Shown: positions 4,617 to 43,895, numbered from the stretch's first letter. The stretch: DNA of 64,000 bases from Octopus vulgaris (GCA_951406725.2 OX597823.1:77128001-77192000), one strand, 5' to 3'. Made by a program: numbers and translations. Notes: a model not told the origin generated them from the letters alone.

Positions 4617-4836
4617 ATGATGGGATGCTGAAATGTTCCTGGTGTTAAAGGTATCGTGAAAGGTTTGGTTGGAGGCCTAATCTTCCAAGTTCTTTTACAG
4701 GCCTCAGAAAAACTGGAGGACCACTGCAATAAGAATGTTAATCTGAGAAGGGGATATGTTGAATAAAATCATAATTAACTGATCCTCTTATATTTTCTTT
4801 TACCAAAAGCCAGGAACTTGTCAGCATCTCTTTGTA
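4617..4836 (+). mobile_element. Mariner-derived MITE / internally deleted element
   Basis: Imperfect TIRs GGGATGCTGAAATGTTCCTGG ... CCAGGAACTTGTCAGCATCTC; interior resembles the mariner transposase C-terminus (...GYVE*). Confidence 0.55.
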
Positions 4837-4901
4837 TATGCAATGTATATGGCAAAAAATGTAAAGGTATATACAGTATAATATTTAAACACTGTTTCAA
4901 T

Positions 4902-5107
4902 AAGGTAGCAAGCTGGCAGAATTGTTAGCACGCCGAGCAAAATGCTTAGCAGTATTTTGGCTGTCTTTAAATTCCACCAAGGTCGATTTCACCTTTCATC
5001 ATTTCGAGGTTGATAAATTAAGTACTAGTTGTGTACTGGGGTTGATCTAATCAACTGAATACTGCTTCCCAAAAATTTCAGGCCTTGTGCCTAGAATAGA
5101 AAAGAAT
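4902..5107 (+). mobile_element. tRNA-headed SINE family C (copies 23305-23500-, 29073-29305+, 47350-48058- cluster, 52370-52570-, 59280-59477-)
   Basis: Head AAGG..GAGCTGGCAGAA..GTTAGCA..., B-box GAGTTCAAATTCC in the 29073 copy, shared core and tail ...GGCCTTGTGCCTAGAATAGAAAAGAA. Confidence 0.8.
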
Positions 5108-5484
5108 TTTGAAACACTGCACTTCCAGATCAAACTGGAGCCTGGTGCAGCCTCCTGGCTTCCCAGACCCCAGTTGAACTGTCCAACACATGCTAGCATG
5201 GAAAACGGACGTTAAACGATGATGATGATGTTGCTGCAGCAATAATCAATAGAAGTGTGTGTGTGTTTACAAATATATAGAGACAAATAAATAGAAGAAT
5301 AGATAGGTAGATGGTTCAATAGATACAGTGATTCAAACATACATCTCTACTTAAATGAATGAGTGTAATTTGATAAGTGTCACTACACGAAACTCTCAGC
5401 CCTTCAGTCACTCAGTAACTTTTGCCAAACATTAATGTTAATAAATGAATACATACATATACATATACATATATACATATATAT

Positions 5485-6410
5485 GAGCTGGACAAAATAT
5501 ACAAGTGGGCTGAAAAGAATAGCATGCAGTTCAATGCTGAAAAGTTTCAAGCTCTATGCTATCAGCACGCAAAACTAAATGCAATACCCAATAAATACAC
5601 TGGACCTGGAGGGACTGCAATCCCAGAGGCACAATCAGTGTGAGACCTATTTACATGAGTGATGATGCAACCTTTCATGTGCATGTTGCTAAATTGGCAA
5701 TGAAATGTAGGCGGCTGACCGGATGGATTCTTGAACCTTCAGAACAAGAGACTAGGAAACCATGATGGTCCTCTGGAGGACACTTGTCCTAAGCCACTTT
5801 GACTATTGCTCTCAGCTATGGTCACCATCCAGTGTCAAGTTAATCACAGAACTTGAGGCGATCCAACGAGCTACATGAAGAAGATAGCCTCTGTGCAGCA
5901 TATAAGCTATTGGGAAAGACTCAAGAGATTGAGACTCTATTCCTTAGAGCGTAGGCAAGAAAGATATGCCATAATATACATCTGGAAGATCCTAGAAGGA
6001 CTTGTCCCAAACTTTGGCATCGAGAGTTACACAAATGCCAGAAATGGGTGCCACTGCATAGTGCCAAGGACTCCAAATTTGCCATCAAGATGTAGGACAA
6101 GATACTGTGATAGCCTGGGCTTCCAAGGCCCACAGCTCTTCAATATCCTCCCGAAGAACCTAAGAGACCTGCATGGGGTGGATGCAGATGTCTTTAAAAT
6201 GAAACTGGATCTCTTCTTGTCAGGTATCCCAGATGAACCAACTTCATGGCTGGAGGTGCAGATGAGGGCTGCTGCATCGAACTCTCTCATGCACCAAATG
6301 GCAATTGCTAAAAAGCATTCATGAAGTAAAATCACGTAGCAAAACCAAATGGCGGTGCCCCAGCATGGCCACGGCTTGTGAGCTGAAACTAGATATATAA
6401 AAAAAGTAAA
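5485..6410 (+). mobile_element. 5'-truncated CR1/L2-group LINE (RT C-terminus plus 3' UTR), frameshifted
   Basis: ELDKIYKWAEKNSMQFNAEKFQ; DYCSQLWSP; YWERLKRLRLYSLERRQERY; FKMKLDLFLSGIPDEP (ORF 5875-6324). These are typical CR1-group ORF2 C-terminal motifs. Confidence 0.85.
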
Positions 6411-6663: not shown

Positions 6664-6780
6664 TGCTTACAGCACTTAGGTTTCCCCAGTGGTCACCCAT
6701 CTAAGTGCTAACTAGGCTTGATGTTGCATAACTTCGGTGATTGGAAAAGAACCAATGCTTTCAACATGATATGGCCGTAA
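6664..6780 (-). pseudogene. 5S rRNA pseudogene (diverged, isolated copy)
   Basis: Reverse complement TTACGGCCATATCATGTTGAAAGC...TCACCGAAGTTATGCAAC...GTTAGCACTTAGATGGGTGACC...GTGCTGTAAGC follows the metazoan 5S consensus over ~117 nt with many substitutions. Confidence 0.85.
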
Positions 6781-7830
<1,050 letters not shown>

Positions 7831-8139: not shown

Positions 8140-10789
8140 AATGGTGCAAAATCCCCTCGTGACCCAAGGTAACGTGGTGGTGGAACAATGTGGTTGAGAG
8201 GGCTATTATAGAAAAGAAACAGGCTTAGAAGGACTGGAGGAACAGAGGTAGCAGGGAATTGTATCAGACTGCCGGAAGAGAAGCTTGGAGACAGGTTTAT
8301 TTAGCCAGAAGGGAAGTAGATAAGAAAAAAATTTGTCAATGTTCTGCACCGTGAGGACCAAAGACTTGAAGTATTTCGTGTTGCAAGAGAGAGTTTGAGA
8401 GAGAATCGTGACATCGTAGGAGAGAAATGTGTCCGCATGGATTACAGGACAGTTCACTTGCACTAAATGAGGATGCAAAGAGAGAGGTTTGGAGACACCA
8501 CTATGAAAGGTTGCTCAATAAAGAGAATGAATGGGAGAAAAAGAGTCTGCTGAATGTCGACCAAATAGAGGGACCAGCTATCCGAATTGACAGTACCTTG
8601 GTAGATAAAGCAATTAAGGGTATGAAGACAGGGAAAGCCCCAGGCCCATCAGGAATCACTGTAGAGATGCTAAAAATATCTGGCAGTGTCAGCTATAGCC
8701 TAGTTACCCATATAGTTAACCAGGTGATACACAAACAAGTCATACCAAATGACTGGTGTACCAGCACCATAGTCAACTGCTACAAAAGTAAAGGTGACAC
8801 TCTAGATACAAATAATTACAGAGGTATCAAGTTGTTGGATCAAGTAATGAAGGTCACGAAGAGGGCCATAGCCCAACTAATTAGAGAGAGAGTCAGTTTA
8901 GATGAGATGCAGTTTGGGTTCATGCCAGGGAAAAGCACCACTGATGCTATATTTCAGGTAAGACAGCTGCAGGAGAAATACCTAGCCAAATATAAACCTC
9001 TGTACCTGGCTTTCGTTGACATGGAGAAAACCTTTGACAGGGTCTCCTGATCCCTTATCTGGTGGTCAATGGGGAAACTAAGGAAAAGTGAATGGTTAGT
9101 GAGAGCTGTGGAGCCATGTACAGGGATGCCATCAGTATGGTGAGGGTTGGTAACGAGTACACTGAAGAATTCAAGGTAGAGGTTGGGGTCCACCAAGGTT
9201 CAGTCCTCAGCCCCCTCCTATTTATCATAGTCCTCCAGGCAATAACAGAGGAATTCAAGACAGGGTGCCTCTGGGAGCTCCTCTATGCTGATGACCTTGC
9301 TCTAATTGCTGAGTCACTATCAGAACTAGAGGAGAAGTTTCTGGTGTGGAAGCAAGGATTAGAATCAAAGGACCTTAGAGTCAACCTAGCTAAAACCAAA
9401 GTCATAATAAGTAGGAAGGCAGACAAACCACAAACCTTTTCAGGTAGAAGCTCTGCTCAATCAGTAGAAAAGGTGTAGGTAGAAACTCTATAAGATGTAC
9501 CCAGTGTAAGCTATGGACACATAAGAGGTGCAGCAATTTCAAAGGAATGCTAATTAGGAAGATAGTTTTTGTATGTGGCAGATGCTCAGGAGCAATAAAC
9601 ACTGAAAATGTGGAGAGAAAAACTAGAAGTAGTTGATAGCTTCCATTACCTAGGCGACCAAGTCAGTAGCTGGGGTGGGTGCACTGAAAGAGTAATTGCT
9701 AGAATAAGAATAGCCTGTGCAAAGTTCAGAGAACTCTTACCTCTACTGGTGACAAAGGCTTCTCACTCAGAGTAAAAGGCAGACTGTATGAAGCATGTGT
9801 ACAAACAGCCATGCTACATGGCAGTGAAACATGGGCTGTGACTGCTGAGGACATGCGTAAGCTTGCAAGGACTGAAGCCAGTATGCTCCGATGGATCTGT
9901 AATGTCAGTGTTCATACTCGACAGAGTGTAAGTACCTTGAGAGAAAAGTTGGATCTAAGAAGCATCAGATGTGGCACAAGAGAGATGACTGCCCTGGTAT
10001 GGTCATGTGGTAAGAATGGATGAGGACAGCTGTGTGAAAAGTGCCACACCCTAGTGATTGAGGGAACCTGTGGAAGAGGTAGACCCAGGAAGACCTGGGA
10101 TAAAGGTGGTGAAGCACTACCTTCAAACATTAGGCCTTACCGAGCCAATGCCTGGTGACTGAGACCTTTGGATATATGCTGCACTTGAGAAGACCCAGCA
10201 AGCAAGTGAGACCATAACCTGTGGCCTATGCCAGGAGTATAACTAGCTTACTTATGCATACCGTCCCTTCATTGGACATTAAACTCTGCTTGCAAGACCT
10301 ATTGAGGCAAGTGAAATCGAAATCAAATTCGATGACAGCACTGCATGACTAGCATCCGTGCTAATGGATCACTAAGAGCACCATCTGAGTGTGATCATTG
10401 CCAGAGCAGCTGACTGGCTTCCATGCTGGTGGCACATAAAAAGCAACATTCAAACATGATTGTTACCAGAATCACCTCACTGGCACTTGTGCTGGTCGCA
10501 CATGAAAAAATGTTCGAGCGAGATCGTTGCCAGTGCTGCTGGACTGGTTCCTGTGCAGGTGACACATAAAAAACACCATTTTCGAGCATGGCTGTTGCCA
10601 GTACCACCTGAGTGGCCCTAGTGCCAGTGGCATTTAAAAGCACCCACTACACTCTCGGAGTAGTTGGCATTAGGAAGGGCATCCAGCTGTAGAAACTCTA
10701 CCAGATCAGATTGGAGCCTGGTGCAGCCATCTGGTTTGCCAGTCCTTAGTCAAATCGTCCAACCCATGCCAGCATGGAAAATGTATGTT

Positions 10790-11632: not shown

Positions 11633-13200
11633 TATATATAGATATATATATATATAAATTGACAGAATGCGATAAAGAATCCAAGACTGTGAATAGTTTA
11701 CAGAACATTAATAAAGAGGTCTTACAGCTGTTTCCATGATACTTTATATATCCCTTTATTAGATAACTATGAATTTGTGTGTGTATGTTTGTGTCTGTGT
11801 TTGTCCCCACACCATTACTTGACAACCAATGTTGGTGTGTTTACATCCCCATTACTTACAGATTTGGTAAAAGAGATAGATAGAATAAGTACAAGCCTAA
11901 AAAATTGAAAAGACGGTGCTCCAGTATGACCGCAGTCAAATGGCTGAAACAAGTAAAAGCATAAAAGAATATGGTGAAAGGATGTTACACTTCTATACTT
12001 TAAATTGGAAAGGTAATTCATAGACTTCCTTTGTAACATATTGGAATAGAGTTCAGTGATGTAGCTAATATTCAAAGTACTTGACATAAAGGCAAAATTT
12101 TAGAAAACAGATTTTTGTGATTAATAATGAAATAAAAAAAGCTATTGATAAAAGAATATTTGAACTTCTAGCTCATTGAGTTTCTGAGATATCTGATTGG
12201 ATACACAATCAATCAATTAAACAAACAAAATCAAAATGAGGAAACCTTTTATTTAATTTTAATTTTGTGGTTAGTGATGTTGGTTTTTAGAAGAGAGTAT
12301 GGATGCATAGTATAAAAATAAGCTTGGTTCCTAGAGCTATCACAGGAAGATTTATAAAAGTACAGTGCCAAATCAACATACATTCACACAGAAATGAAGT
12401 GGAAGATCTAAGGACACTTGATACAAATGTAAAGCCAAACAGACTGAAGAATTTCATAGGAGGAATATTTTCAACAACCAAATAAAATTTATGTTATAAC
12501 AAATACGAGAGATCTAACATTTCAGGAAGCCTCCTTCAACAGAGAGAAAGAGATATCAAGTGGTTTTAAAGGATGGATCACTTGGGGTGAGAGAGAGGGA
12601 GAGTGAAAGAGATTCTAAGTTTTAATGGATGGAGGCTGTAATGGTCAGGGAGAGGAGGAAATATAAGGAACATCAACAAGTTTCAAAACTATCGAGAGAT
12701 GGAAGAGAGATAAAGACATAGAAATGAGAGAGGGATACCTAGATTCAGACCCACATACATATGTATGGATGTAGCTATAAATGTGGTGTACACAGTTATA
12801 TATTATGTATAAAAACTATACTAAACAAAACAAGAGCACTCAGAGAGCACAAACCTCTGCCAAAGTAACACCAGAATCCTCTCAATGAATAGCCAGAGAT
12901 GATTTTTAAAATGAGAATATCTGAAACAAACTCGACTGCTCTCACAAATGAAAGTACTAAAAATGAACCCAGCCGTTCTCAAAAATTAAAAAAACCGGAA
13001 AAATAATCCAGAAGATAATTTTCCTGTGTCTATGTTTTCTTTGGTTGTATAATGTCAATTTAACGTGACAGTAGGGGATTACACCACCGCTGTTTAGCCC
13101 TAGGAAGCATCGACGCTTCCTGATGGCTTTGACACATTTATTCCTGTGTCCTTATATATTTACGAAGGGGAGACAAACACCCCCAGCAGCCAGGCCTGCA

Positions 13201-13247
13201 TCTAGAGAAACACATGTTTCAGAATCTTTGTCCATCATCGGTCTAGA
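13201..13247 (-). ncRNA. Degenerate hammerhead ribozyme (unit 1)
   Basis: tctaga-CCGATGA-tggacaaagattct-GAAAC-atgtgt-TTC-tctaga. Core U4 is changed to C and helix III is mismatched. Confidence 0.65.
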
Positions 13248-13273
13248 GTAGCAGAAGCCCGCCAGCCGCAGAT

Positions 13274-14935
13274 GAATCTTTATTATAGGCACAATGGCCC
13301 GAATGAAGAGGGGACATAACAATACAGGACATGGGGTACATATAACAAAAAAAAAAAGGATGGTATGACAATGAAATACCTATAATTAATTAAATGGAAT
13401 GGCTTACGAGCTACCCCCAAAGCTCGCAGTTTCATTTACAATTACAATTGTGCTGTCCGGGGCGTTCATCCATAATATAATCGAGTAACTCCTCCTGTTC
13501 TATAACACCTGGCAAACTGTCATATCGAATGTATTGCATTACGCGTACAGCTATATTTGAATACACATTTATTAATTTCATTACTGTCTCTCTTTCTACA
13601 ATTGCCGCCTTTATTTGGTCATCGAATATCTTCAGGCTCAGTTTTACTCTAGTTAGATTTTTCATATTCACTAATTTCTTCTCAATTTCTTTGTCCTTTT
13701 TGTACAACATTATAGCTTTGAGATTTCTTCCTTTTGGCCTCCGTCCTTCCTTACATATTTTCAGTTGTTCTTCCATTTTTCTTTCCCATTCTTTCTCTTC
13801 CTCCCACATTGAAACTTCACTCACTTTTGTTTCTGTATCTCTCTCTTTGTGCGTTTGATCCCCTATCTCGTCGGTAGACTTCTTTTTGGCTTTTTCCTTT
13901 TTTTGTGCTTTCGGTGGTGATTCCACCTGCGTTCTCTTTCTATCCTCTTTTTCTTCTGTTCTTTCCTTTTCTTTCTCCTTCACCAACTCGTCACCACTTT
14001 CCACATTATCTGTAGTCACGATTTCTTCTTCCGCTTGCAATTCCACATTCGCCTTTTGTAACTCCTCTGTCAAAGCCTCCAGTGTTATCGTCTTCTCTTG
14101 TACTTCTCTCAGCGGACACATATCCTTCATGTGACCTCTAATTTTACATTTGTAACACACTGGGGGTCTCCCCTTCACCACGACTCTGAGACATGTCTCG
14201 TCGGGGAAGACCAACTCCTCTGGGATGTTATACAGGTCTGGCATGGTTATGTGAACCAAAGCCTGCACCGCATAACCCCACCAATTTATTTCTTTCGACT
14301 TTTCTACCTTCAGTATGTGAACGCTCTCTTTGCAGTTGAATATTATTGCCGCTACAATTCTTTCCGTGTCCAGTTCCGATGAAATTTTACTAATCCGTAT
14401 TCTCACTGCTCTTTTTCCACAATAGCTAGGTAGTAACACCCATTTTTCGGATTTCAATACTGTCGTGGCGTTTCTCTTCGCTTCGTCTTTGTTTTCAAAA
14501 CGAATGTCTACTGTCGCATATTTTCTACCTCTATTGTAGAAGGTAGTTTTTCCTTTAATTTCCTGTAGACACTTCTCAATTTCTTCCACCTCTGCTACTT
14601 CTATTCTCTTCGAAACCACACTCCACGTTCTGTACGTTATAATTCTCTTCTCAGCTTCTTTCACTTCGTCTTTAGGTGGTGTGACCCTCAGACAATCACC
14701 TTCCTTCTTGATGCTGTCGTAGTACTTCCTCAAACTCTCCTTCTCGATAACTATTTCTTCCACCTGTAGTTCGCTCGCAACCAGGCCTCTGCCTGTTGCT
14801 ACCACATAAGTTTGAGCTTGCATACCCAACAAAAACTCCAACAATTCACCACGCCGTAACAACTTCCAACAACAAAATCCAACTCACAACCGCAATACAC
14901 AATAACCATAATACAAAATAACCAACACAAACACT
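13274..14935 (-). mobile_element. Full-length ORF1-only non-LTR element (Tx1/L1-related, HAL1-like), 1662 bp
   Basis: 17-bp TSD GCCCGCCAGCCGCA(G/A)AT at 13257-13273 and 14936-14952; 5' end AGTGTTTG; single ORF; 3' end ...GTGCCTATAATAAAGATTC; no RT or endonuclease. Confidence 0.8.
13432..14823 (-). CDS. Gag/ORF1p-like nucleic-acid-binding protein with CCHC zinc knuckle (463 aa from the first ATG)
   Basis: Uninterrupted ORF with C-x2-C-x4-H-x4-C (CYKCKIRGHMKDMC), preceded by an RRM-like region and followed by a K/E-rich tail. This is the layout of Tx1/L1 ORF1. Confidence 0.8.
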   Translation of the reverse strand: MQAQTYVVATGRGLVASELQVEEIVIEKESLRKYYDSIKKEGDCLRVTPPKDEVKEAEKRIITYRTWSVVSKRIEVAEVEEIEKCLQEIKGKTTFYNRGRKYATVDIRFENKDEAKRNATTVLKSEKWVLLPSYCGKRAVRIRISKISSELDTERIVAAIIFNCKESVHILKVEKSKEINWWGYAVQALVHITMPDLYNIPEELVFPDETCLRVVVKGRPPVCYKCKIRGHMKDMCPLREVQEKTITLEALTEELQKANVELQAEEEIVTTDNVESGDELVKEKEKERTEEKEDRKRTQVESPPKAQKKEKAKKKSTDEIGDQTHKERDTETKVSEVSMWEEEKEWERKMEEQLKICKEGRRPKGRNLKAIMLYKKDKEIEKKLVNMKNLTRVKLSLKIFDDQIKAAIVERETVMKLINVYSNIAVRVMQYIRYDSLPGVIEQEELLDYIMDERPGQHNCNCK

Positions 14936-15236
14936 GCCCGCCAGCCGCAAATATCTGTCCCGACTTCGTAAATATATATATCTAATTTTCAGTGAAGTTT
15001 ATTCACTGATTACCAAAATCAGAAATATTAAATTTCTAAATATCTCATAGAGATATGTACGGTGATGGGGCGATAGAATGGTTGTATACTGTCAATTTAA
15101 CGTGACAGTAGGGGATTAAACCACCGCTGTTTACCCCTAGGAAGCATCGATGCTTCCTGATGGCTTTGACACATTTATTCCTGCGTCCTTATATATTTAC
15201 GAAGGGGAGACAAACACCCCAGCAGCCAGGCCTGCA

Positions 15237-15283
15237 TCTAGAGACACACATGTTTCAGGATCTTTGTCCATCATCAGTCTAGA
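15237..15283 (-). ncRNA. Type I hammerhead ribozyme with intact catalytic core (unit 2)
   Basis: TCTAGA-CTGATGA-tGGA caaaga TCCt-GAAACA-tgtg-TGTC-TCTAGA: 6-bp helix I, short helix II, 3-bp helix III, GUC cleavage triplet (15245-15243). Confidence 0.8.
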
Positions 15284-16089
15284 GTAGCAGAAGCTCACCA
15301 GCTGCAGATATCTGTCCCAACTTCGTAAATATATAAATCTAATTTTCAGTGAAGTTTATTCACTGATTACCAAAATCAGAAATATTAAATTTCTAAATAT
15401 CTCATAGAGATATGTACGGTGGTGGGGCGTACATATCTCTATGAGCACCCACTAAACCGTATTAGTCATAAGGAAGAAGAGAAATCTAACATTTCACAGA
15501 GAATCCTTCATCACAAAAAAATAATAATAGTAAATGCCCTGATGCAGTACCAGGCAGTGGCTCTCATGGCTTCTGATCTTAACTGATTGGAAGTGTTATC
15601 ATGTACATTGTTTTGTCTAGGTAGAAAAGATGGGCTACAGCAAATATTCTGCTCAATACCACAGATTTGCTTGTCAGTTGTTTGACCTTAACCAGTTGAC
15701 CATGTCCATTGTGGCTGATGATATTTGCATCTCTGATCCCGAGCAGAAGTAGTTGGGAGCATCATAGCCATGTGTTGAGAGGCATTCTTTGGGGTTTGAA
15801 TAATTCACCTCTGGAAACATGGGTGTTTCATTTAACATACTTAAACAACCCTTATTCAGGGACCTTTTGAGCAGGATGGGTTACTCAACCAGAAAAAAAT
15901 TCTAACTGGGCCCCACCTGCAAGGTCATGTGCTGTTTATCTTGATATGAGATCACCATGTCATGCATATATGTTTGTGATGCATGTACCTAGTGTAGCCT
16001 TATCAGATAGATAGTCATGATGGGTATACTGGGCTTTGTATATTTTACCCCAGTGGCACTTCAATGGCATGCACTGCTCTCTCACTCAA

Positions 16090-40860: not shown

Positions 40861-43290
40861 TTATTCTTTTATTAGCCACAAGCACTTACAAACAATAACA
40901 TTAAAAGACATGCAACAATGTAAAAATCAAAAAGCTGGACAATACAATGGGTTTTACAGTGTGTAAACAATATATATATAGCAATAACAAATTAAACAGA
41001 TTAAAACTTCCAATAGGGCAGGCATTTTAAGGTTCCCATGGAAAAACCCACAAAACCCATGGGTGCCTGATCAACAGAGCAAGAGCCCTTCTTTTATTTC
41101 TCAGGATTGGTTCTTTCACACTGGCCATCCTTCCAACATTCACCCACCTTTCAACAAACTTGCTACAAGGCAACACTTTCCTTTCCACCCTCAGCTTCCT
41201 TCTCAAGTGAAATTTGAAAAAGTTGATGAGGGCTTAGCCAAAGAGGAAAGTGTCTGTCTTTAGCCTTTTCAAACAGGCACACCATACTACCCCTTTTTGC
41301 TACAGCCACTAGACAAATTAAAAATTGCCTGTCCTCTCCTGGCAAAAAGAGGACGGCGGAGCAATCTTCACAATGGATTCAGCTGATAGCCAGATCTGTC
41401 CACCATGTGACAGCAGGTGTTCGATATAAATCCACAGGTCAGCAATACTCAGGCACTGAACTAGGGTGTGCAGAACAGTATCACCGTTCTGGGTGCACCT
41501 GGAGCAGGCCCAGCTAAAGGCAATTTATCTCGAACAGGCAATGCCCCTCAGTAGTACTGCCAGGCAAGGGATCTCTGGAAGTTAATCATAGGCTCAGGCC
41601 TGAAAGTTCTCTGAAACAGATCGGTTAGTTGATCTTCATCAACACCCAGAGTTTTCCTGAGAACATTGTCGCACTTTTTCTCCACTAGCCGTCTATAGAA
41701 TGCTAGGGTGGAACTTCTACCGACTGCATTGCCCACCTGGTGGAGGGCTGTGAACACTTAATGGTGCTCGAGGTGCCAAGCACCTCTCCTTGGTTTATGC
41801 CTAATCCAGGTTTACAGTTGAGTCAAGGAGATGAGCTGTGGAAAAGTGTGCCTGACAAACGGTGAAAACACCTGCTCACTGTCAAGGAAACGCAGGAGAT
41901 GCTGCAACCTGTGCTCATGTCTGTGCATCAGTAACCATGGCATGCCCAGCCCTCCATTCAGTGGCTGTTGACAGAAGATGGAGTGTCTAACCAGTGGAAT
42001 GTACCCTTTACACAGAAAGCAGAAGAGTAAACACACCAGCTTGGTCAACCAGTAATAGATGACGGATGCGATATACACATTCACCACCTCTGCTCAACCT
42101 TTCAGGGATAGCTTCCTCTCAGCCAATTTCTGGGTAAGATACACTACTCTGCTCATCACTTCATCCCTCTTTTTCTCCATCTGGAGGTTTGGTCCAAACC
42201 AGACTCTGAGCAACTTAATCAGACCATCTTTCCAGTACCCTATGACACTGTTGGACAGCATGGACTTGCCTCTCCAGGTGCTGAGTAGCAAGCCTGCTGA
42301 CTTTTCTGTATTAATTTTTGCTCCTGTCACCACCACTTCATATTCTTGTAGTGTGTTGCCAATGAGCTCTATATGCCTGTGAATCAACACTATGATGGTG
42401 ACATTATCAGCATAAACAGATACATTTCTCCCACATCCTAGATCATGTGGGACACCCCTCAAAGACTCTGACTTCTGCATTAATGGCCCAAAGAGTCAAT
42501 ATATACAGAAAGGAGAAGAGAGGGCATCGTTGATGGACCAAACACAAGATGTTGAATGGCTCCAATAGGTGACCATTCACCCGAACAACCAAGTAGATGC
42601 TGTTGTACAAAGCAGCGATCCAACTGCAGAAAACTGGACCAAAACTGGCTGCCTTGAGGACAGCTGCCAAGTATTGATGGTTGACCCTATCAAAGGCTTT
42701 AGTTTGATCTAAATTGAACAGAGCTCCACCCATGCCAGCTTTGTTACCCACATTCCCTATGTTGTAGTACATAAGATGGAGGTTGTTGTGAATAGTCCTG
42801 GTTGGGATGGTGCATGTCATTGCCTCACCAACCAGCTTGTCCACAACAAGTGCCAATGTCTTAGCTAATATCTTGGCTGAAATCTTCAACTCAGCATTGA
42901 GCAGAGTGATGGGCCAGAAATTTTCTATGATGTTTGTTTGGGTCCTTTCTCAGCAGTGCCACTACCCCTTGACAGACAAAAGTGGGAATATCTCCCATTC
43001 TGCAACCAGTTGCAGTAGACGTCTGCTAAGAGGCCCCAAAACAAGCCTGGCATTGAAGTAAAAGTCTCGTAGGGCAGACCATTCAAACCTGGCAATCTTA
43101 CCTCTCATGCAACTCTTCATCGCTTCCTGTATTTCTGTGGCTGTTATTGGCTTTTTGCAGCACTCCGCCTCACTTGTTGAGAGTCGTGGCAGGCTGCCCA
43201 GGTACACATTGGAGTCTGCCTTTTCATCCATCCTACCATTCATCCTGATCAGTCAAGCAAAGTACTTCTGGAAGGCGCACACATCTGTTT
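40861..43290 (-). mobile_element. 5'-truncated Tx1/L1-clade LINE ORF2 (decayed RT) plus 3' UTR
   Basis: KISAKILAK, LDQTKAFDRVNHQYL, VSVYADNVT, GAKINTEKS and GGLGMP motifs across frames; 3' end ...CTTGTGGCTAATAAAAGAATAA. Confidence 0.9.
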
Positions 43291-43895
43291 CAGTTCAAAC
43301 CCTTCACATCCGTTCTGTAAAACCGTCAGTCTCATCAAAGTCATCAACGACAACCAAGTAGAATTACTTATAACAACCTTCTACACAATTACCGTCATAT
43401 TCATTATTATTTACACTGACATCATCATCATCATCATCATCCTCATGAGAAACATTGTCATCATTATTGTCATTATCAGAAGCAGCAGCAGTATCATAAG
43501 CATTGTCGTCATCATCATTGTTATTATTATCATTGTTGACAATTATTATTATAATTATTATTATCATTGTCAAGATGTTGCTCATCATTATCATCCTCAT
43601 AGTTCACACCATCATCATCAAAATCAGAATTATCACTGACAACATCGACAGCCATCATTATCATAATGATCAAATCTGATACTGTCATCATTGACAGCCA
43701 TTAGCTTCATCACTGTCATCACCATCATCATCATCATCATCATCATCATCTGTTCATCATCATCAACAGCATCATCATCATTTGATCATCACCATCGTCG
43801 TCATCATCATCATCGTCGTCATCATCCTTATCATCGACATTATCATCATCACCATCGCCGTCGTCGTCGTCATCATCATCATCATCATCATCCTC

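Follow-up and report, generated by a model that had tools for sequence, protein, structure and literature searches.

An octopus ORF1-only LINE inserts at a fixed distance behind a snRNA-type promoter motif of hammerhead retrozymes

A 64,000-nt stretch of Octopus vulgaris DNA (GCA_951406725.2, OX597823.1:77128001-77192000; hereafter the window) contains a retroelement inserted into a retrozyme, a tandem repeat with hammerhead ribozyme motifs. All features described for this locus lie on the minus strand unless stated otherwise. The insert occupies positions 13274–14935 and lies within a 357-bp repeat, at the start of the second unit. Its length of 1662 bp is defined by the two copies of a 17-bp target-site duplication (TSD), located at 14936–14952 on the 5′ side and at 13257–13273 on the 3′ side, which match at 16 of 17 positions. 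Self-BLAST identified this duplication as the only flanking repeat, with no long terminal repeats (LTRs). The element carries a single intact open reading frame (ORF) of 463 amino acids (ORF1; 13432–14823), contains no reverse transcriptase (RT) and lacks a poly(A) tail. An AATAAA motif (13279–13284) lies in its conserved 3′ tail, which is common to the partner family, the sister families and the short interspersed nuclear element (SINE)-like repeat described below.

The retrozyme unit upstream of the element (unit 2, 14953–15309, +1 at 15309) is a complete 357-bp unit of a family denoted as A. It is preceded by a retrozyme promoter part (15310–15429) with the motif ATCAGTG, which resembles a proximal sequence element (PSE), at 15361–15367, 58 nt ahead of the unit-2 +1. 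The same core recurs within unit 2 at 15004–15010, 58 nt upstream of the duplication, and is followed by a TATA-like tract (14971–14980) at about −28. The 5′ copy of the TSD corresponds to +1 to +17 of the retrozyme unit, and position 14952 is the likely transcription start. Unit 1 (13042–13273), downstream of the element, extends from +1 to about +231, a usual 3′ end point of family A; the two units are 94.8% identical over 232 bp by self-BLAST. The same search revealed an 18-bp inverted copy on the plus strand at the 5′ end of the retrozyme locus (15428–15445), which may be a Penelope-type 5′ inversion. The type I hammerhead motifs are located at 15237–15283 in unit 2 (core CUGAUGA, 15277–15271) and at 13201–13247 in unit 1 (core CCGAUGA, 13241–13235). 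Their predicted cut sites, after 15243 and after 13207, are 2036 nt apart and enclose the whole ORF, and about 10 nt separate the end of the TSD from stem I of unit 1. An earlier note on this DNA had described a TSD-flanked element of this size with a 463-aa ORF and no RT, co-oriented about 10 nt upstream of the unit-1 hammerhead, with cleavage sites 2036 nt apart; all of these observations hold.

At the gathering score, Rfam contains no hammerhead match in unit 1 or unit 2. Unit 2 gives a sub-threshold match to HH9 (20.5 bits versus 52, E 0.087) and unit 1 gives none, while an E-value scan of eight loci returned nothing but repeat-driven microRNA-type matches. A purpose-made type I descriptor, comprising the core, three stems and UH, is passed by unit 2 and failed by unit 1. 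The C at core position 4 (U4C) is the norm in family A (33 of 35 cores listed), and the private damage of unit 1 is localized in stems II and III rather than at this position. The unit-1 hammerhead is thus damaged; the earlier note had described it as looking inactive. The canonical core of unit 2 may be a reversion by CpG decay. A U4C hammerhead is described in PMC3088659 as slow in vitro, yet sufficient in a viroid. Among the hammerhead-like motifs downstream of the insertions in the genome, 46 of 74 pass the strict type I descriptor with covarying stems, compared with 0 of 2220 shuffles. By sequence, the retrozymes at the insertion sites form about eight groups, with stems that are not the same from group to group yet pair. 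With its tandem units of 357 bp, within the 170–400 bp range, each with a type I hammerhead, the host repeat conforms to a non-LTR retrozyme, and family A is abundant (2378 first-look candidates).

Genomic loci similar to the element, numbered L001, L002 and so on, were fetched for comparison. The DNA search with the element (40 scored of 337 candidates) returned a majority of near full-length copies, and the protein search with ORF1 (150 scored of 13256 candidates) returned matches of 47–100% identity. Many of these matches are frames of 430–490 amino acids, and many lie in head-to-tail stacks with a period of about 1.8 kb. ORF1-only copies are uniform in length (1.6–1.75 kb). An ORF2 query over L001–L160 matched at six places; at four of these the ORF2 is part of a distinct element that has a 3′ end to itself, and L010 contains an ORF1-only element nested in another long interspersed nuclear element (LINE). 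With the exception of L154, discussed below, the copies thus do not continue into an ORF2, and the element is a multicopy, full-length unit with ORF1 and no ORF2. The ratio of nonsynonymous to synonymous substitution (dN/dS), whose calculation among copies the earlier note had proposed, is 0.14–0.24 relative to the window copy, with a median of 0.18 in the 308 pairs whose dS exceeds 0.3; the sample comprised 31 intact frames only, several of them near-duplicates. The value of 0.18 holds across subfamilies with dS >1. ORF1 is accordingly under purifying selection.

The structure model of ORF1 (predicted local distance difference test, pLDDT, 71.8) comprises two RNA recognition motif (RRM)-like domains (about residues 50–137 and 138–220), a CCHC knuckle (223–236), a disordered linker and a C-terminal alpha/beta domain (330–455). 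The zf-CCHC match at residues 222–237 is weak (E 9e-4, just below the curated cut-off). The model resembles tandem-RRM proteins with E 7e-5 to 1e-3 and a best Z of 8.5, and ZCCHC3-type RNA-binding clusters provide a further lead. The C-terminal domain, modelled with a pLDDT of 86, is conserved in the ORF1-only family and absent from both autonomous families examined. It has no notable match in Pfam, Atlas or Foldseek (best E 0.014, to ferredoxin-like folds) and no match to ORF2. A word-index protein search with ORF1 found nothing, while a profile search did return homologues; the five top homologues looked up are all named Octopus proteins. The earlier note had called the protein Gag-like. Ahead of the knuckle, the model shows two RRM-like domains of alpha/beta type and not a helical capsid, and no LTRs are present; a retroviral or LTR-type Gag was rejected, and the predicted fold identifies the protein as a LINE ORF1. 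RRM-like domains combined with a CCHC knuckle are those of the Tx1/L1 group. Duplications of 11–22 nt including microhomology, variable 5′ truncation and TSDs around truncated copies are the signature of target-primed reverse transcription, and a poly(A) tail was found at 0 of 108 junctions. We assign the element to the Tx1/L1 group, as a HAL1-like, ORF1-only member with multiple subfamilies.

ORF2-bearing 3′ ends beside ORF1-only copies led to a partner family of about 5.5 kb. Its ORF2, a 1134-aa ORF in L225, contains Exo_endo_phos (an apurinic/apyrimidinic-type endonuclease), RVT_1 and zf-RVT domains, and its ORF1 is 26–33% identical to that of the window copy. The 30 partner 3′ ends include 20 that precede a hammerhead and three that lie immediately ahead of the first base of a U2 gene; four are stacked and three are followed by other sequence. 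Partner copies in U2 and in two retrozyme families show at most six differences in 2900 nt, or are 99.6–99.7% alike over 900 nt, and this near-identity across different targets marks the partner as young. The partner and the ORF1-only elements share insertion sites and a related 3′ tail, and they form chimeras, both of a partner 5′ part with an ORF1-only tail and of an ORF1-only 5′ part with a partner ORF2 end (L124 and L006). In L124, a block of unit, element and partner fragment is repeated. These chimeras suggest that one RT handles both RNAs, and the partner likely copies the ORF1-only RNA. Another candidate partner, a very active LINE family associated with (ATT)n, has a related ORF1 and tail; it was rejected, as its copies end in ATT repeats. 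This family has a 1145-aa ORF2, ends in (ATT)n and forms 5.87-kb tandem arrays; it is represented in L171–L190 and by a decayed copy in the window (40870–43300, minus strand). A further observation concerns an abundant SINE-like repeat (L147, oriented 4770–5400; L153, L154, L156), whose 3′ tail CCCC...GTGGGTAATAAAGAAAT is common to a sister ORF1-only clade, which points to the same mobilising machinery.

To describe where the copies land, 3′ ends were counted as distinct genomic positions among the fetched loci; the counts for ORF1-only ends are lower bounds, because copies with degenerate tails are missed. Among 78 ORF1-only 3′ ends, 54 have a hammerhead-like core within 45 nt downstream and 14 have a further family member next to them. 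The remaining 10 run into other sequence, which in two cases opens with a retrozyme start. All insertions at retrozymes are co-oriented with their target. The family thus shows a preference for multicopy targets, and most copies have retrozyme flanks rather than unrelated ones. The earlier proposal that the retrozyme is a specific target of a Tx1-type family is supported, with the amendment that the target is best described as the +1 of a snRNA-type promoter (snRNA, small nuclear RNA), common to U2 genes and several families of retrozyme, and not as the GCCCGCCAGCCGCAGAT sequence.

Several further landing patterns were observed. A very young ORF1-only sister clade (L122, L123, L128, L149 and L153, with L002 in the same type of repeat) forms stacks up to seven deep, which sit about 25–30 nt behind the CCAAT/TATA promoter of a repeat; in L128 this repeat follows an ORF with a Penelope-like RT and GIY-YIG. 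Mixed stacks (L121, L131–L137, L147, L152) consist of two further ORF1-only types, about 65% and about 35% identical to the window ORF1, in many near-identical copies, and start about 30 nt behind a TATA-like box. In L156, an ORF1 element is inserted near the head of the abundant SINE-like repeat. A truncated element in L274, near 1520, is joined directly to (CCCTAA)n telomere-type repeats in mid-contig.

Of 65 resolved insertions, 13 with another element upstream were set aside. In 39 of the remaining 52, ATCAGTG (at most one mismatch) lies 54–61 nt before the TSD, whereas random window positions have it in 1.5% of cases. The same core is present at −57 to −59 in 15 of 15 U1 loci. In U2 it lies at −57 to −61 in all 23 loci that are uninterrupted, and it is absent upstream of U6 in the one U6 array gene read. 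Together with the partner insertions at the U2 +1, these data place the insertions at a fixed distance from a promoter element in dissimilar targets. A PSE about 60 bp upstream is described as the core snRNA promoter element (PMC4494074). The octopus retrozymes therefore appear to use a U1/U2-type, RNA polymerase II promoter with a defined start, predicted to coincide with the base that opens the duplication. Newt satellite 2 is a repeat with a snRNA-type promoter.

The 5′ junctions provide a second line of evidence. Several copies carry the first 14–17 nt of another target at this junction. The pieces open at the predicted +1 of that target, which is what a donor RNA starting at this base would leave behind; transcription thus likely starts there. 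Four U2 copies, probably from one event, have a piece of retrozyme +1..+14 behind the U2 duplication. Donor-type 5′ duplications are present in L008, L015, L016, L225, L240 and L139–L144. The 5′ junction of L008 contains a second family-A start, and in L225, L240, L029 and L139–L144 the 5′ copy is subfamily-specific and unlike the local 3′ copy. In L028, the element 5′ end is fused, within a microsatellite, to about 20 nt that correspond to the 5′ end of U1 snRNA. This piece may derive from a donor copy in a U1 gene or from a template switch; element ends are absent upstream of all 15 U1 loci inspected.

Partner copies that are identical over 900–2900 nt have flanks that are 91–97% alike or unalignable, and such identical copies in different targets show independent insertion. 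In a tree built from 62 of the 76 copies, after removal of 14 rows that were truncated or rearranged, ORF1-only sisters that are 93–95% alike occupy different retrozyme groups, and two stacks contain the same two subfamilies in opposite order. Of the 64 ORF1-only pairs with a likeness of at least 93%, 23 lie in flanks less than 80% alike. The full-length copies that were resolved all have a TSD of their own, which matches the retrozyme variant at that locus. A single amplified composite was rejected as the main explanation, given the sisters in different retrozyme families and the identical partner copies in unlike flanks.

Taken together, we consider it probable that this ORF1-only LINE, likely copied by its partner, inserts in sense about 58 bases behind a snRNA-type motif; with a sense insertion at the likely transcription start, the host promoter would then transcribe the element. 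RNA polymerase II would start at the first base of the duplication and produce an RNA composed of target +1..+15 and the element, in keeping with the donor-derived 5′ ends of the copies. ORF1p would coat its own RNA, and the partner ORF2p would nick a new promoter near +1 and copy the RNA by target-primed reverse transcription. The 5′ target piece of the RNA would anneal at the upstream junction, and such pairing would explain the many full-length copies and the donor-type duplications. The target unit would lose its promoter. By analogy with Ty3 and TRE5, it is probably the promoter complex or the opened start that guides the machinery to its site, with a lesser part played by local sequence. 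The window copy is surrounded by two hammerheads because it landed in the second unit of a retrozyme dimer, and the two flanking ribozymes are mostly a by-product. A more elaborate version, which we put forward tentatively and rate at somewhat less than an even chance, would have the LINE find RNA polymerase II snRNA-type starts via SNAPc/TBP or the opened start and live on retrozyme promoters, one parasite upon another. The ORF1-only members would retain their protein, which has a family-specific C-terminal domain, for its role in tethering. Transcription running on into the downstream hammerhead would set the RNA 3′ end, with the coding element occasionally taking the Penelope route.

The same promoter use could arise if the site were read by sequence alone, with an endonuclease of each lineage, possibly helped by RNA–DNA pairing of target sequence transcribed along with the element, recognising the +1 bases and the PSE distance being a mere consequence. 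The three targets of the youngest partner, U2 and two retrozyme families, share TTYATCG....CYGG, the off-target partner copy L235 also begins with ATCG, most subfamilies are largely confined to one or two families of target, and the cut of one subfamily lies about 10 nt deeper. Endonuclease-based choice is moreover the rule stated for Tx1 in PMC4494074. However, retrozyme families A, B, C and D and the TATA repeat have little sequence in common around the nick (ungapped columns). The short motif occurs 2996 times and has the PSE core at the right distance at 943 of these sites (31%), yet the core precedes all 13 partner copies at such sites that are full-length and non-stacked (in one case at −46), and none uses the two thirds that lack it. 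We regard recognition by sequence alone as unlikely on these grounds. Much less credible still is that the element is mainly retrozyme cargo after rare captures, with a hammerhead-to-hammerhead RNA of about 2 kb that circularises and is copied by a Penelope-like RT. The earlier note had envisaged a protein-coding retrozyme of this kind. Penelope repeats (pLTRs) can move cargo in trans, according to PMC3846280, and among 11 5′-truncated copies ending at the retrozyme +1, six are promoterless with unrelated DNA upstream (1.5–7.7 kb checked), four show inversion or a partial tandem, as Penelope elements do, and one is a classical promoter-flanked truncation. In L066, both arms contain the element 3′ end and the retrozyme, 95.6% alike. 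L144/L315 is the only locus in which two passing hammerheads enclose a long frame (366 aa, 2100 nt between cuts). Against these observations stand the TSDs of the full-length copies and the rarity of bracketing: a same-strand hammerhead is also present upstream in only 3 of 26 ORF1-only and 4 of 10 partner loci, 7 of 36 overall. Four candidate repeats with close +1 sites are local duplications or inverted pairs and contain no unit-plus-element tandem arrays. No flanking duplication was found around three promoterless fragments, which deletions could also produce. This low bracketing and the damaged downstream ribozyme of the window copy argue against a coding circle as the main route, and only a weak form of the proposal stands, as the six promoterless element-plus-retrozyme fragments suggest occasional hitch-hiking. 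Retrozymes are common enough, and 8 of 78 copies lie at unrelated sites, for a chance insertion of an internally deleted LINE to be considered. This explanation is refuted by the 68 of 78 ends that lie at the same retrozyme position or in stacks, all co-oriented, by the uniform length and by a dN/dS that holds across divergent subfamilies.

Returning to insertion at snRNA-type starts with probable transcription by the host promoter, several observations weigh against it. Eight of the 78 ORF1-only ends occupy unrelated positions that lack the PSE core, and 13 of the 52 resolved insertions lack it at −54 to −61. One off-target copy, L002, which is 95% identical to the window copy, speaks in favour of a promoter-defined position: a TATA box precedes it by about 28 nt, in an unrelated repeat also used by the stacking sister clade. 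In stacks, the next element rather than a promoter lies upstream, and stack order is uninformative as to age. The retrozyme families may descend from one repeat, and part of their constant spacing would then be inherited; U2 and the TATA target alone stand outside this kinship. Each partner lineage may possibly recognise a longer sequence. The transcription start, the polymerase and hammerhead activity are all read from sequence. The more distant copy L154, whose ORF1 is 55% identical, runs on into an ORF2 fragment. An RT search with the partner returned 47 matches, the best named ones 24–28% identical and none a named reference RT, and the group label is accordingly Tx1/L1. In 27 of the 64 close ORF1-only pairs, including the nearest relatives of the window copy, the flanks are about as alike as the elements; co-amplification of these pairs is possible.

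A screen for A-to-G differences flagged 7 of 125 rows, two of them overlapping at one locus. The upstream stack copy of L128, L153 and the upstream copy of L125 show massive sense-strand A-to-G change relative to their nearest relatives, spread over the ORF (153/160, 156/164 and 118/168 differences, respectively); the pattern is weaker in L079, L022 and L012. These copies are likely ADAR-hyperedited RNAs that were reverse-transcribed into the germ line, and the literature searched contains no paper on such copies in octopus. Elsewhere in the window, a 5S ribosomal RNA-like copy lies at 6664–6782 (minus strand), and fragments at 8427–9478 and 5875–6324 (both plus strand) resemble what we take to be RTE-type and CR1/L2-type LINE ORF2, respectively.

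The insertions constitute a natural map of retrozyme promoters and bear on how animal retrozymes are transcribed. If the proposed mechanism is true, promoter-directed insertion extends from RNA polymerase III, as in Ty3 and TRE5, to an animal LINE at RNA polymerase II small-RNA promoters. The near-identical young copies make the choice between sequence and tethering directly testable, which is of interest for site-directed gene insertion, and the system could serve to test why the protein is retained in ORF1-only elements. The literature searched holds no report of a LINE that targets retrozymes or snRNA-type starts; Repbase or subscription papers may catalogue the families.

Tx1-clade elements described in PMC4494074 and PMC4640811 target U2 snRNA (Keno), microsatellites (Kibi/Koshi) and DNA transposons (Tx1 and Tx1-Mar). 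The octopus system resembles these accounts in its endonuclease- and RT-bearing partner with an ORF1, its TSDs, its multicopy targets among small-RNA genes and mobile elements, its tandem stacking and its non-autonomous riders that share the target. It differs in that a single lineage enters many dissimilar targets at one position defined by the promoter, and in its lack of poly(A) at the 108 junctions. The U2 site of the octopus partner is +1, while that of Keno/Utopia is internal, at about +37. HAL1 (half-L1) of mammals is likewise ORF1-only, and, as described in PMC5753468, non-autonomous, encoding only ORF1p, and long-lived as a lineage. Unlike HAL1, the octopus element occurs in a mollusc, is site-specific and likely borrows its promoter, has an ORF1 only distantly related to that of its partner and carries an extra conserved C-terminal domain. 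Ty3 inserts 1–4 nt from the start and TRE5 ORF1 binds TFIIIB (PMC5911963). The fixed distance to small-RNA promoters is shared with Ty3 and with TRE5/NLTR-A, an L1-clade group of Dictyostelium. Their RNA polymerase III targets (tRNA and 5S) keep the promoter of the gene, as described, whereas the octopus promoter is U1/U2-like and the sense insertion displaces the target from it. The target repeats resemble the metazoan non-LTR retrozymes and Penelope pLTRs reported in PMC7229834, PMC8557442 and bioRxiv 10.64898/2026.07.22.740005 in their units of about 360 bp, minimal type I hammerhead and palindromic stem III, as well as in their partial tandems and 5′ inversions. Described retrozymes encode no protein (bioRxiv 10.64898/2026.07.22.740005), in contrast to the octopus repeats, which carry a U1/U2-type PSE core and host insertions of a protein-coding LINE. 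The parts of this system, Tx1-type targeting, HAL1-type elements and the position specificity of Ty3 and TRE5, are therefore known, and their combination at RNA polymerase II snRNA-type starts and retrozymes appears to be new.

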